Shown here: positions 1,964-6,016 of the stretch, one piece after another
How the letters are laid out: the number at the start of each line of letters is the position of its first letter
Numbering within the stretch: position 1 is the first letter of the stretch
Sequence record: NC_014662.1
Direction: 5' to 3' (one strand)
Source of the DNA: Enterobacter phage CC31
Length of the DNA stretch: 64,000 bases
Position numbers and translations under genes: made by a program
Notes under the pieces: model-generated
Databases searched by the model: none
Told to the model about the DNA's origin: nothing
The model's input: the letters and a program-made list of their open reading frames with translations, nothing else

Positions 1964-2271
1964 ACCTTTTCCTCTAAGAAGTCAGACAGTTTAAAATCTT
2001 TACGGTCCATCAGACCATAGTGAATGTTCTTCAGCGTATCGTACATGTCCCAGTACTTTTCTTTTAGCATATTACCAAATGGTGGAATGTAAAGCTTATC
2101 CCATTTGGCAGCTAACTCACCGTTGCGCAGTTCTCCTGGAACATTTTCAACGATACGTAAAACTTTAGTTGCAACCTCATAATCGGATGGCGGAATCCAT
2201 CCCCAATTATGATGTACTGAACCGTTAATTTCGCCATTCAGCGAAGTAAAAATTGTAGCTGGACAACTCAT
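1960..2271 (-). CDS. Hypothetical protein
   Basis: 103 aa ORF in same-strand overlapping gene chain. Confidence 0.5.
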   Translation of the reverse strand: MSCPATIFTSLNGEINGSVHHNWGWIPPSDYEVATKVLRIVENVPGELRNGELAAKWDKLYIPPFGNMLKEKYWDMYDTLKNIHYGLMDRKDFKLSDFLEEKV

Positions 2272-2630
2272 CGTGTACCTCTAATACCTTGAATAAAGTT
2301 TAAAGCATCTTCACCTGAAGGAACTTCTTTAGACTTAGATTTTCGTTTAAAGAGTTTCCACTCTTTCTTTTGGTCGAAGGTTCCACGTTGAACCTGCCCA
2401 AGATAAAATAACCACTTTCCAATCCAGTAGAATGGAGTTAAAATGCCAGCCATCCAGCCAACAAAAAGTAATTGTTCTCCATAAAGAGGACTAAAGAAGT
2501 ACAATCCCCAATATAATCCAAACCCATTAAGCATTGTGAACATAAAGCAAATAATAATAGTGCCAATAGTCCATCCGAAATTATCATATGAACCAGCATC
2601 TTTGAATCCGCGAAATAATGTTTTAATCAT
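2268..2630 (-). CDS. Small membrane protein, paralog 1 of tandem family
   Basis: 120 aa; two hydrophobic helices; C-terminal NFIQGIRGTR tail. Confidence 0.55.
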   Translation of the reverse strand: MIKTLFRGFKDAGSYDNFGWTIGTIIICFMFTMLNGFGLYWGLYFFSPLYGEQLLFVGWMAGILTPFYWIGKWLFYLGQVQRGTFDQKKEWKLFKRKSKSKEVPSGEDALNFIQGIRGTR

Positions 2631-2965
2631 CGTTTAATCCTGCATCTGGAGATAAAGTTCTCTAAATTTTGTTTGTCGTCGTAAATGGCCTTGGCTTTAG
2701 TAAACAGTTTAACATGAATTTTACAATAGCACCATTTGATAAAAGAAGCTAAAACTATTACCACGAATAATGAGCATAAAGCACTTAGTGGTACAGTGAT
2801 AATCATTTCAGCTACAAAACCGTTGAACCACCAAACTGCGAAATTTGATAAGAAAACAGTAAGTATAATAATTGTCCAACAAACGTTGTCCTCATATTTC
2901 GACTTGAATCTGTCAGCAATTTCTCGTTCAAAATGTCTGATATTCATTTTAGGATTGTATTTCAT
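2627..2965 (-). CDS. Small membrane protein, paralog 2
   Basis: 112 aa; CWTIIILTVF and second hydrophobic helix; C-terminal ENFISRCRIKR. Confidence 0.55.
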   Translation of the reverse strand: MKYNPKMNIRHFEREIADRFKSKYEDNVCWTIIILTVFLSNFAVWWFNGFVAEMIITVPLSALCSLFVVIVLASFIKWCYCKIHVKLFTKAKAIYDDKQNLENFISRCRIKR

Positions 2966-3302
2966 TTTTACCTCGGCATTCCGTAATGAATTCTTCTGAT
3001 TCTCTGATTATTCTATTATGAAGAACTTTAGCATTCTGTTCAGCTAAGCGTTTATTTTCTGGTCGCATCACCCACCAAATAGCAATTTCTTGTGATTTTC
3101 CGTGAGACCAAAGTAGAACTGGAATAGAAAGAAACATTGATACTACAACCCAAATTGGAGCATATACTCCGTCATTAAGTATTAAAGCAGGAACAAAAAT
3201 TAAAAGCACCGCCACTGAACTAAAAGCCAAAAATATTATCATATGTAAAAATTCTGCTTTTGCTGCAAGCTCTCTTAATTCACTTTTTGGTTGATACCCC
3301 AT
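2949..3302 (-). CDS. Small membrane protein, paralog 3
   Basis: 117 aa; two hydrophobic helices; C-terminal EEFITECRGKN. Confidence 0.55.
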   Translation of the reverse strand: MGYQPKSELRELAAKAEFLHMIIFLAFSSVAVLLIFVPALILNDGVYAPIWVVVSMFLSIPVLLWSHGKSQEIAIWWVMRPENKRLAEQNAKVLHNRIIRESEEFITECRGKNEIQS

Positions 3303-3304
3303 GA

Positions 3305-3679
3305 TTATTTCCTCGCTTTACGACAGTCGTTAATGAAGCATTCAAACCGTTCAGCTTTGCTGAGCTTTGATATTATTCTATTTCTTCGCATGCCAATTAA
3401 AATTTGTGCAATAAAATTAACAAATTCACCAATCAGCATAACAATGATACCAAACATTCCCCAACCAAAGCATGTGAATGCAGCCATTGCTCCAGCAGAG
3501 TCAGCTCTTTCTTCTTTTGGAAGATTTGTGATATCAGACCAACCCCAAAATACAATAATTCCGTATAGTGTCAATGCAACGCACCAGCAGAGCTTTTCAT
3601 TTCTGGTCAAAATATATCTGACTTTGGTTGAAAGAGAATCCGTTTTAGCAATTTTAGCTTTAAGTTCAGTTGAATTCAT
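3305..3679 (-). CDS. Small membrane protein, paralog 4
   Basis: 124 aa; CWCVALTLYGIIVFWGW and second helix; C-terminal FECFINDCRKARK. Confidence 0.55.
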   Translation of the reverse strand: MNSTELKAKIAKTDSLSTKVRYILTRNEKLCWCVALTLYGIIVFWGWSDITNLPKEERADSAGAMAAFTCFGWGMFGIIVMLIGEFVNFIAQILIGMRRNRIISKLSKAERFECFINDCRKARK

Positions 3680-3712
3680 TTTATTTTCCTCATAGGGCCC
3701 GAAGGCCCTTTA

Positions 3713-4630
3713 TCATTTGAACGGACGAATCATATCAAAGTTTTGTTTAAAGCGTTTGACATAATCTGTCTTTCCAAGTTTCTTATGCATTGCAACTATC
3801 TTATGGTAGTTTTCCCATGCATATTCACGAAACCAGCCAGATGTAATGCTAGTACAAACTTTTTCCAAAGCGTACATAAATGAACCCGTAGGGTCTGGGT
3901 TGAAATTATTTGGAATTTGATGGCGTTCTAAAGCAAGTACACAAGTTTCTTCATATACACCTGCAAGCTTAAGTTCTTCAGGAAGAGAATCGAACTTCTC
4001 TTTTGAAGTCATTACTTCAGAGCCATCTTTCATGTAGAAAGTATAAGCAGGACGACCAGCTAAAGCCACTGCTTCATGAATTGAATCGTGGTCATAGATG
4101 TAAAAATCATCTTTAAAGAAAGAATCTTTATCTACATCCAGATTAGGATGAGAATATGCTAATGTTTCTTTCTGGCGCAGTTCAGAAATCTTTTTCAGTT
4201 TACTGTCTAAAACAATTCCTTTATTACGCAAGAAACGAATATGATGCATAGTCTTTTGAAAGAAACGAGTGTTCTTCTTGAAACGATGAGACATCTTAAT
4301 TGCTAAGCACATCTCAGGAGTTGCCCAATACATCTGTGAAAGCGCATCATAGCACCCATTAAATACTGCGTAGTGAGCAAGCAGTTCAGATGAACTCTCG
4401 TCGTTATATTCAAAAATGTATGCTTCAAAATAGGTCTCACGACCATTATGCATGCATTTAAAGGCTTGTACATTAGGAGATTGAACTTCGACCTCTGTAC
4501 CATTCATACGGTTTTTGAAATGGAGCCATTCGCCCGGAGACGCGATGAAGTCCCAATCAGAATTCTTAACATCACTGTACTCAATGAGTCCATGGTGATG
4601 TAGAGCTCTAGAACCAATAACCAGCAACAT
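3713..4630 (-). CDS. Hypothetical protein, 305 aa
   Basis: Long ORF; N-terminal VIGSRALHHHG...SDWD loosely resembles a nucleotidyltransferase motif but spacing is non-canonical; C-terminal NFDMIRPFK tail. Confidence 0.5.
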   Translation of the reverse strand: MLLVIGSRALHHHGLIEYSDVKNSDWDFIASPGEWLHFKNRMNGTEVEVQSPNVQAFKCMHNGRETYFEAYIFEYNDESSSELLAHYAVFNGCYDALSQMYWATPEMCLAIKMSHRFKKNTRFFQKTMHHIRFLRNKGIVLDSKLKKISELRQKETLAYSHPNLDVDKDSFFKDDFYIYDHDSIHEAVALAGRPAYTFYMKDGSEVMTSKEKFDSLPEELKLAGVYEETCVLALERHQIPNNFNPDPTGSFMYALEKVCTSITSGWFREYAWENYHKIVAMHKKLGKTDYVKRFKQNFDMIRPFK

Positions 4631-4659
4631 AATATTTTCCTCTTTAGAATGTAGAACTA

Positions 4660-5001
4660 CTATAACACACTTGACTGATGTTGTAAACGGTTCTTTCTAC
4701 ACATTCTGATGAAGTTTTCAATAGGCTCTTCTGGTCTATTGGCTGGATAGCATTTCTTCCAGTTCCACCCTCCCAGCAAGTCAAAGATTTGGTCAGGAAG
4801 AGAATCCCATGGATGTTCTCTTTCGCGGAGTTGAAGCACAATATCACCGGCTGCTTCTCTAATTCCAGTATCAAGTTTTCCATTACAAATCACGACATCC
4901 ATGAGTACTGCAAGACAACAACTATCATGGCTTCCGTATTTGTTCGGATAGTAGAAATAATGGTCAATAATGTAGCAGCAATTACGGTCTAAACCTTTCA
5001 T
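4660..5001 (-). CDS. Hypothetical Cys-rich protein
   Basis: Start chosen at MKGLDRN (ATG 5001..4999 after AGGA); C-terminal ENFIRMCRKNR tail shared with downstream genes. Confidence 0.45.
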   Translation of the reverse strand: MKGLDRNCCYIIDHYFYYPNKYGSHDSCCLAVLMDVVICNGKLDTGIREAAGDIVLQLREREHPWDSLPDQIFDLLGGWNWKKCYPANRPEEPIENFIRMCRKNRLQHQSSVL

Positions 5002-5064
5002 AGTGTTCCTCCAGTGATTCTGGGGAAACTTTTCAGTTTCCCCATATATTACCATTAACAGCTG

Positions 5065-5137
5065 CTAGTGTACCTGGACTCGAACCAGGGAATCGTAGAA
5101 TCAAAATCTACTGCCTTACCAACTTGGCTATACCCCA
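5065..5137 (-). tRNA. tRNA-Gln (UUG), no encoded CCA, acceptor mismatch
   Basis: Manual fold: anticodon arm GTAGA-TTTTGAT-TCTAC, T-arm CCTGG-TTCGAGT-CCAGG; body close to remembered E. coli tRNA-Gln. Confidence 0.7.
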
Positions 5138-5143
5138 ACTGTT

Positions 5144-5220
5144 TGGAGGCGGGTGATGGACTCGAACCATCGCGTAACGGGATATGAACCCGTCATTCTA
5201 CCAACTGAAGTTAACCCGCA
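5144..5220 (-). tRNA. tRNA-Met/Ile2 (CAU)
   Basis: Anticodon arm ACGGG-TTCATAT-CCCGT, T-arm GATGG-TTCGAGT-CCATC, encoded CCA; position 1:72 unpaired. Confidence 0.65.
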
Positions 5221-5230
5221 CTTATCCGGA

Positions 5231-5318
5231 TTCCTGAAGTACAACGGCTGCTTTATGTAGAACTCACCTATTGTGAGGGAACAAAATCACTGGTCCTGGC
5301 ATTAATTATGGACCACCA
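5231..5318 (-). ncRNA. Candidate structured small RNA within tRNA island (not a tRNA)
   Basis: Outer 9-bp stem ttcctgaag/cttcaggaa enclosing two hairpins (GGTCC..GGACC and CTCAC..GTGAG); no T-loop motif. Confidence 0.35.
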
Positions 5319-5340
5319 TCTTCAGGAACTGCCTCGTATT

Positions 5341-5416
5341 TGGCGGACCTAACGGGATTCGAACCCGTGACTCTCACGTGACAGGCGAGTATTTTCACCG
5401 CTGAAACTATAGGTCC
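5341..5416 (-). tRNA. tRNA-Asp (GUC)
   Basis: Perfect cloverleaf: acceptor GGACCTA/TAGGTCC, anticodon arm CTCGC-CTGTCAC-GTGAG, T-arm ACGGG-TTCGAAT-CCCGT, CCA encoded. Confidence 0.8.
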
Positions 5417-5658
5417 AAATTATCTTTCGTGATTATGTGAATCCCTCAGGTTTTCCGGAAAACCGAATAGGCGACAAAAGCTCTCATATACCCGTGCACA
5501 GATATAATCTTTGTTAACTAGTGTCTGAATCAGTATAATCCGAAAGATAACTTTCGGCGCCGTATTTAATTTGAGATATGTAGTTATCGTTGAGGGAACT
5601 CATATTCAGGGATTAACATGCCGACGACTTTGTCAGAACGTCTTCCAACTTCTATATT

Positions 5659-5743
5659 TGGCGGGTCGTGCAGGTATCGAACCTGCCTAGTCATTTCTGA
5701 CACGGATTAACAGTCCGCCGCTTACCCTCTCAGCCAACGACCC
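5659..5743 (-). tRNA. Type-II (long variable arm) tRNA with Asn anticodon GUU
   Basis: 85 nt; acceptor GGGTCGT/ACGACCC, 3-bp D-stem, anticodon arm GCGGA-CTGTTAA-TCCGT, 15-nt variable hairpin GTCA-GAAA-TGAC, T-arm GCAGG-TTCGATA-CCTGC, G73, CCA. Confidence 0.6.
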
Positions 5744-5748
5744 AAATT

Positions 5749-5823
5749 TGGTTCTCCGTAAGAGAATTGAACTCTTCTTTCCGACGTGAAAGGCCGGCGT
5801 CCTAACCGATAGACGAACGGAGA
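5749..5823 (-). tRNA. tRNA-Glu (UUC)
   Basis: Acceptor TCTCCGT/ACGGAGA, anticodon arm CCGGC-CTTTCAC-GTCGG, T-arm AAGAG-TTCAATT-CTCTT, CCA encoded. Confidence 0.7.
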
Positions 5824-5824
5824 T

Positions 5825-5902
5825 TGGTAGGACGTGAGGGAGTTGAACCCATCGACATTCCGATTAAAAGTCGGATGCTCTAACCAACTGAGCTAACGTC
5901 CT
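5825..5902 (-). tRNA. tRNA-Lys (UUU), weak T-stem
   Basis: Acceptor AGGACGT/ACGTCCT, D-arm GCTC-AGTTGGTTA-GAGC, anticodon arm TCCGA-CTTTTAA-TCGGA; T-stem only 3 bp. Confidence 0.65.
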
Positions 5903-5940
5903 GTAGATATTTATAATAACAAAAATATCTTTAAGCAAAT

Positions 5941-6016
5941 TGGTGGGAATAACTGGACTCGAACCAGTGACCTAACGATTATCGGTCGTTTGCTCTACCA
6001 ACTGAGCTATATTCCC
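5941..6016 (-). tRNA. tRNA-Ile (GAU), C at position 33
   Basis: Acceptor GGGAATA/TATTCCC, D-arm GCTC-AGTTGGTA-GAGC, anticodon arm AACGA-CCGATAA-TCGTT, T-arm CACTG-GTTCGAG-TCCAG, CCA. Confidence 0.7.

Follow-up and report, generated by a model that had tools for sequence, protein, structure and literature searches.

What does the 305-aa protein encoded at positions 3713..4630 of a 64,000-nucleotide stretch of Enterobacter phage CC31 (NC_014662.1; the whole stretch is referred to here as the window) do for the phage? The virus is a Karamvirus, a T4-like Enterobacter phage, and the first-pass annotation, made from the letters of the DNA, had recorded a weak nucleotidyltransferase (NTase)-like motif near the N-terminus of this protein as a lead. 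The sequence and a structure model argue strongly that the protein is a Pol-beta-fold NTase with an intact active site. The best overall explanation, to which a probability of roughly 0.4 is assigned, is an active two-lobed Pol-beta NTase that acts on RNA or tRNA ends in the conflict between phage and host over translation.

An ATG-initiated open reading frame (ORF) fills exactly 3713..4630, in agreement with the first-pass annotation; it lies on the minus strand, which the annotation had not given, and the plus-strand frame is stop-ridden. The coding sequence, defined by the ORF list and by its Pfam and PHROG 2141 matches and dN/dS, specifies a DUF7277+DUF7275 protein. Over its first 14 kb, the window matches the IMG/VR contig UViG_650627040 (165,540 bp) at 100% identity. 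In Enterobacter phage PG7 the protein has a counterpart that is 100% identical by tblastn, PG7_136, annotated there as "hypothetical protein". Purifying selection on the gene is strong, with dN=0 and dS=0.23 relative to PG7 and a dN/dS of 0.04-0.08 relative to two further relatives.

The peptide quoted in the first-pass annotation, IGSRALHHHGLIEYSDVKNSDWD, corresponds to residues 5-27. The catalytic motif region (aa 5-28, IGSRALHHHGLIEYSDVKNSDWDF; 4547..4618, minus strand), assessed by invariance, spacing distribution and a shuffle test, is laid out as hG[GS] (I5-G6-S7), a 17-residue loop, and D-h-D-h (D25-W-D27-F). The G-S and following acidic residues that had been singled out, G6, S7, D25 and D27, are invariant in 37 homologs with identities down to 45%, and so is a third acid, E69 (codon at 4424..4426, minus strand), which lies on strand 64-72 (YFEAYIF) of the model described below. 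In canonical Pol-beta NTases, [DE]h[DE]h occurs 9-13 residues past G[GS], and a third carboxylate (h[DE]h) is on a neighbouring strand; by analogy with this consensus, E69 would be the third metal ligand. The first-pass annotation was right that G-S and D-x-D stand farther apart than is canonical, at a spacing of 17 residues rather than 9-13. The range among 118 family members is 10-26 and the commonest value 17, with 13 members in the 10-13 interval; the 17-residue spacing is therefore a feature of a variable loop. A relaxed motif, h-G-[GS]-x9-20-D-h-[DE]-h, was found at any position in 0.9% of shuffles of the 305-aa protein and within the first 40 residues in 0.04%; judged by sequence, the NTase-like motif exceeds chance.

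An AlphaFold2 model built on the 37-homolog alignment (predicted local distance difference test, pLDDT, 92; predicted template modeling score, pTM, 0.85) has an alpha/beta lobe at the N-terminus and a helical lobe after it. A helix begins at residue 6, D25 and D27 are at the start of strand 26-30, and the alpha/beta core is superposable on known NTases. The top two Foldseek matches to the model were 5uvd and MenT1, each with a probability of 1.00, and the structures nearest to it are those of MenT1, MenT3 and MenT4. Structure modeling and a structure-based search were the check proposed for the weak lead, and because an NTase fold was returned rather than none, the lead is upheld.

The two lobes coincide with two Pfam families. 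The N-terminal lobe (aa 1-~100; 4331..4630, minus strand) is DUF7277, a minimal NTase core of the Pol-beta type, and is acidic, with an isoelectric point (pI) of 5.0. The C-terminal helical lobe (aa 107-292; 3755..4312, minus strand) is DUF7275 and is basic, with a pI of 9.05. Residues invariant in this lobe in both the long-form and the mixed alignments are K112, H115, K126, H181-D182, H185, E227-E228, E235-R236, S261 and G265. A structural relative of the DUF7275 lobe was not found in the PDB. The arrangement H115...H181-D182...E227 prompted consideration of an HD-domain phosphohydrolase, which was rejected since the lobe does not have the HD helical fold. A HEPN/KEN identity was likewise unsupported; its sole prompt was a match to RNase L (E=0.39), the one match in a PDB profile search, and neither an Rx4-6H motif nor the HEPN four-helix fold was found in the lobe.

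The 305-aa protein is a full-length, high-scoring member of its family, matching DUF7277 over aa 3-87 (E=4e-27, 95 bits), DUF7275 over aa 107-292 (E=3e-77, 259 bits; the Pfam gathering threshold for both is 27 bits) and PHROG 2141 (E=2e-139). Membership conveys no function because these families are uncharacterised. The protein has no match in NCBIfam or PADLOC or in a phmmer search of PDB sequences, and the weak Pfam matches across the 37 members are noise. Literature searches found no paper characterising DUF7275, DUF7277, the PHROG ids, PG7_136 or an anti-defence role of a phage NTase. Two GenBank labels, given independently of each other, stand at the same level of inference: "putative nucleotidyltransferase" for gp066 of Acinetobacter phage Berthold, and "putative antibiotic resistance protein" for orf139 of Klebsiella phage VPA32. 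A 67%-identical homolog in Klebsiella phage vB_KpnM-VAC36 (P0033) is labelled "prohead assembly scaffold protein" at NCBI, almost certainly a mis-annotation that could propagate.

The family is present in 731 phage genome records and is essentially restricted to phages. It forms 2,303 long-form and 578 short-form clusters at 90% identity; at 50% identity, an exhaustive profile search gives 1,655. Among the best 150 of the 1,655 cluster representatives, the architecture is uniform (~285-377 aa) and there are no informative domain fusions; a lone fusion to DUF1190 (P0056) has the look of an artefact or of a replaced N-terminus. The short form, ~250 aa and found on actinophage-like contigs, belongs to the same family by hhalign (probability 100%, E=9e-40). 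Its N-lobe is reduced, yet G-S, D-x-D and a conserved Glu are kept. This retention bears on the idea that the protein is a catalytically dead scaffold, a relic of the fold with a non-enzymatic role, or that the motif arose by chance. The non-canonical spacing of G-S and D-x-D, and the failure of sequence-profile methods to match any NTase family, would fit such an idea, but the G-S and three acids are invariant over divergence to ~45% identity and are kept even in the short form, dN/dS is 0-0.08, and the motif is rare in shuffles; a dead protein is thus highly improbable.

If the protein is an enzyme, what is its substrate? Sequence and model together suggest that it works in a manner resembling MenT and RlaP but belongs to neither family. 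The MenT toxins (MenT1, Rv0078A; MenT3, Rv1045; MenT4, Rv2826c) and AbiEii are DUF1814 (PF08843) proteins with motifs I and II, of the Pol-beta type, and C-terminal motifs III and IV (K189/D211 in MenT3). No match to DUF1814 was obtained at E<=10 with the 305-aa protein or any of the 37 homologs. MenT/AbiEii proteins also have a cognate antitoxin, either AbiEi/COG5340 or a MenA1-like short upstream ORF, and none is present in the 64-kb window. MenT1, MenT3 and MenT4 are tRNA-acceptor-end NTases (PMC7450476, PMC10435456), and MenT1 has as its partner a short upstream helical antitoxin, which obstructs the active-site cavity (PMC10435456, PMC7450476).

RlaP is an RNA-repair NTase that adds 1-2 nucleoside monophosphates (NMPs) to damaged RNA 3' ends (PMC12776372). 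The layout of the AlphaFold2 model agrees with its description, an N-terminal NTase domain and a C-terminal helical domain forming a cleft (PMC12776372). The split of charge between an acidic nucleoside triphosphate (NTP) pocket and a basic cleft is also shared, phage-encoded RlaP members exist, and short-form relatives of the 305-aa protein are likewise near RNA ligases and Pnkp. By analogy, NMP addition to the 3'-OH of damaged RNA is the activity that may be proposed for the 305-aa protein. There are also differences: the family coexists with NrdC.11 in the same T4-like genomes (e.g., UPEC07), RNA ligase is absent from the vicinity of the gene in the window and at most long-form loci, and DUF7277-DUF7275 relatives have conserved small acidic partners, which are undescribed for RlaP. 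Neither the 305-aa protein nor the 37 homologs match PF10127 (RlaP) in Pfam. A divergent RlaP was rejected, BLASTP against T4 NrdC.11 giving E=3.9 and hhalign a probability of 0.1% with a low-diversity RlaP alignment.

Other members of the fold are more distant. Class II CCA-adding enzymes have a GGxVRD...DxD head with other neck and body domains, whereas the 305-aa protein has IGSRAL; structures of these enzymes and of poly(A) polymerases gave only weak fold matches (TM ~0.2), and PF01743 is matched neither by the protein nor by the 37 homologs. Class II CCA-adding identity was rejected. ANT(2'')-Ia (AadB), LnuA, JHP933 and TM1012 are proteins of 156-225 aa without a DUF7275 lobe, have small-molecule or unknown substrates, and show no relation to the 305-aa protein at the level of hidden Markov models (HMMs). 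A small-molecule NTase of the ANT(2'')-Ia/LnuA kind, inactivating an antibiotic-like anti-phage metabolite or a nucleotide- or NAD-derived immune signal, is improbable. ANT(2'') and LnuA are single-lobe enzymes of 160-177 aa, and the large, basic and densely conserved 200-aa lobe of this family is more typical of macromolecular substrates; no resistance-family HMM is matched, and the conserved protein partners would be left unexplained.

The surroundings of the genes offer a second line of evidence, which differs between the two forms. In the window, seven tRNAs (Gln, Met, Asp, Asn, Glu, Lys, Ile; 5064-6016, minus strand) form a block, and the NTase gene is 434 nt downstream of it. CCA maturation of these neighbouring tRNAs is an unlikely role because six of the seven encode the 3' CCA, tRNA-Gln being the exception. 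Two gaps within the block, 5221-5340 and 5417-5658, carry no annotation and may contain small RNAs or degenerate tRNAs. Among 80 long-form loci, tRNAs are close to the gene in 28/29 Tevenvirinae and in 4/51 others; the proximity in Tevenvirinae is therefore lineage synteny, and tRNA adjacency as a family-wide trait was rejected. Ten jumbo-phage contigs carry a Pnkp-like gene 3.5-5 kb upstream of the long form, three long-form loci have an RlaP/NrdC.11 homolog 8-9 kb upstream, and an RNA ligase is near 2 of 83.

Short-form loci (n=74) have tRNAs within 10 kb in 50 cases and within 1.5 kb in 26. The density of tRNAs is flat across the whole +-10 kb, which places these genes in tRNA-rich regions and not specifically next to tRNAs. 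RNA ligases of three different types are found within 10 kb at 27/74 loci, representing 13/37 lineages, and in six the distance is at most 100 nt. Counted by lineage, ligase positions are biased toward the gene (8/15 at <=2.5 kb; p = 0.017 versus a uniform distribution); Pnkp-like genes occur at 15/74 loci and show no significant bias. TROVE/Ro60, RNase T and LigT-like genes are also present near short-form genes. Compact RNA-repair neighbourhoods were observed on actinophage-like contigs L092 (5780-7324 and 10072-11966), L091 (2463-5586) and L088 (2478-4672), with TROVE/Ro60, a PHA02142-type RNA ligase beside a DNA ligase, RNase T, a LigT-like 2H phosphoesterase, YqeY and dense tRNA arrays. 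RNA ligase, Pnkp, TROVE and tRNA genes are components of a phage RNA-repair toolkit (PMC7824862), and the association of the family with RNA-repair genes is no more than suggestive.

For the substrate, an RNA or tRNA 3'-OH is ranked first, and 3'-end nucleotidyl transfer is tentatively proposed as the activity, by analogy. The ranking follows from three observations: the nearest structures are the tRNA-acceptor-end NTases MenT1, MenT3 and MenT4; the architecture and charge split match RlaP; and several lineages repeatedly have RNA ligase, Pnkp, TROVE and tRNA genes in the vicinity. Weighing against it, no RNA ligase, Pnkp, TROVE or RlaP gene lies near the ORF in the window. In the proposed mechanism, the DUF7277 lobe would bind metal and NTP through its G-S, D-x-D and E residues. 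The family-specific DUF7275 lobe, by analogy with MenT toxins and RlaP, would form the other wall of the active-site cleft and bind the acceptor. NMP(s) would be moved from NTP to a hydroxyl acceptor held by the basic lobe, and one or a few would be added to an RNA 3'-OH, most likely a tRNA end. The enzyme, probably expressed early, would take part in the struggle over the translation apparatus, where it would work with phage RNA ligase and Pnkp to restore damaged RNA ends or else modify tRNA ends. In most relatives, the basic cleft is probably filled or gated by a small acidic partner, which would serve as an inhibitor or regulator, like MenA1 for MenT1, or as a co-substrate.

These small acidic partners are the strongest context signal of the family. 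In a survey of +-8 ORFs around 85 long-form genes in 20 lineage groups, 144 neighbour ORFs ended in a W-x-S-S-x-x-C motif, 138 of them exactly in the Cys. They are assigned to phrog_899 (without a Pfam family), are 60-160 aa long with a pI of ~4.3, and have the consensus tail G-G-W-V-S-S-S-x-x-C (almost invariant G-x-W-[VIL]-S-S-S-x-x-Cys-COOH). All but one of these ORFs (143) lie upstream of the long-form NTase, on its strand; the remaining one is downstream. The ORFs are present at 67/85 loci, with upstream copies in 13/20 lineage groups, and no other neighbour cluster covers more than three lineages. Often there are 2-3 paralogous copies per NTase and several genes intervene before it; in unrelated phages they lie 0.1-1.3 kb upstream. 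Counts of phrog_899 and NTase run in parallel by phage genus: Escherichia, 253 vs 260; Aeromonas, 57 vs 59; Enterobacter, 34 vs 34; Klebsiella, 34 vs 35; and Shigella, 18 vs 18. Examples among loci L009-L087 include L027, which is PG7, with ORFs at -3 and -2; another is at L002, 5641-5913.

Short-form genes are accompanied by another small acidic family, phrog_18295/8206 (~125 aa, pI 4.45), whose motif is G-[YW]-Y-x-S-[YW]-D-G-x-x-W-D-G. It is found downstream of the NTase at 60/69 loci in 34/37 lineages, with 115 copies downstream vs 2 upstream. It typically starts 0-17 nt past the NTase stop, is usually translationally coupled, and is often duplicated; examples among short-form loci L088-L162 are L094 (+1), L104 (+1) and L091 (6373-6735). 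Homology between phrog_899 and phrog_18295/8206 was not detected by hhalign (probability 0.5%).

The phage under study has lost its phrog_899 partners. No phrog_899 member was detected in the whole 64-kb window by tblastn and unfiltered HMM search. Relative to PG7 there is a deletion of ~8.4 kb with its junction at ~5055-5064, for which no covering record was found in the phage collection. The missing segment (PG7 KJ101592.1, 68051-76457) contains the first tRNA block (Arg/Cys/Leu/Thr), e.6/e.8-like ORFs and both phrog_899 genes, and its loss joins the -1 gene to the second tRNA block of PG7. The gene directly upstream of the NTase is phrog_29231. Thus, with its partners gone, the enzyme would act unregulated or alone in this phage.

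The partners raise the question of whether protein, rather than RNA, is the substrate. NTase-fold proteins that modify proteins include MntA, GlnE and DrrA, and a protein nucleotidylyltransferase (AMPylase/UMPylase) could modify a Ser or Tyr hydroxyl in the tail or motif of the partner, or in a host protein. Such a function is unlikely, if attractive in several respects: the small-protein link is the strongest and most lineage-independent association of the family; the exact Cys ending of 138/144 tails after a near-invariant W-x-SSS fits a tail that undergoes modification or specific recognition; the frequent presence of 2-3 paralogous partners for each NTase suits substrates better than an antitoxin; and acidic partners (pI ~4.3-4.45) would complement the basic C-lobe. 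However, both phrog_899 genes are deleted here and the NTase is kept with dN=0, the two partner families have no detectable mutual homology, and no top structural neighbour modifies any protein besides itself. It is equally doubtful, though conceivable, that the NTase and the small acidic proteins, which in relatives are nearly always adjacent, form an undescribed two-component phage system, in which the NTase nucleotidylates, or is gated by, a Ser/Tyr-rich motif of its partner.

The same arrangement may also be read as a toxin and its antitoxin. An offensive MenT/AbiEii-like toxin would extend the tRNA 3' ends of the host or of a competitor phage, causing host shut-off or superinfection exclusion, and the small acidic protein upstream would be a MenA1-like antitoxin that plugs the electropositive active site. 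This is less likely still. The nearest structures are indeed those of MenT1/3/4, MenT1 likewise has a short upstream helical antitoxin (PMC10435456, PMC7450476), and the partners are small acidic proteins that lie upstream or are translationally coupled. But DUF1814 is not matched by HMM, genes often intervene between phrog_899 and the NTase, and the partners are multicopy. In this phage the putative antitoxins are lost and the "toxin" is fully conserved, which is awkward unless toxicity is the purpose, and the RNA ligase/Pnkp neighbourhood suggests repair rather than damage.

Several other features surround the gene on the minus strand. A Shine-Dalgarno-like AAAGAGG, read directly from the sequence, lies 5' of the ATG (4639..4645), with its GAGG 8 nt from the start codon. 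A promoter scan found a sigma-70/T4-early-like match, TTTACA-17-TGnTATAGT (4659..4687), within the 3' end of the upstream ORF; read from 4687 to 4659, it agrees at 10/12 positions plus the TG and is a consensus match only. On the other side of the gene, sequence and scan revealed a perfect hairpin, AGGGCC-UUCG-GGCCCU (3694..3709; 6-bp GC-rich stem, UUCG tetraloop), between a TGA-TAA double stop and the ribosome binding site of the next gene. The hairpin can form on transcripts of both strands because it is palindromic. The coding strand offers no U-tract, which excludes an intrinsic terminator for the NTase gene; an RNA-stability or processing element is more likely.

The NTase gene is flanked by tandem small ORFs of 112-131 aa on the same strand, four downstream (2268-3679) and one, phrog_29231, upstream (4660-5055). 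All five end in an E-x-F-I-x-x-C-R-x-K-like C-terminal motif (ERFECFINDCRKARK, EEFITECRGKNEIQS, LENFISRCRIKR, ALNFIQGIRGTR and IENFIRMCRKNR), and from their sequences they look like a paralogous family. The four downstream ORFs have, by eye, hydrophobic, membrane-like stretches.

The DUF pair was already catalogued, though uncharacterised; new here are the fold assignment with conservation of the catalytic residues, the lack of any structural relative for DUF7275, the separation of the protein from the MenT, RlaP and CCA families, a pair of conserved partner families, and an RNA-repair context that is suggestive. For this window the finding is modest, a single conserved accessory gene stripped of its usual partners. 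For the family, a Pfam DUF pair from hundreds of phages, including therapeutic T4-like candidates, becomes a testable hypothesis, that of a distinct Pol-beta-fold NTase family whose active site is intact, whose basic substrate lobe is novel and whose small acidic partners are conserved. Large lytic phages are rich in conserved unknown genes, and the translation apparatus, with its tRNA ends and anticodon loops, is a principal battleground between phages and bacterial immunity. If the enzyme acts on RNA ends, it would be a third type of NTase in the phage RNA-repair and tRNA toolkit. If, instead, it has its partners as targets or regulators, it would represent a new phage two-component module, for protein modification or toxin regulation, into which two unrelated partner families were convergently recruited.
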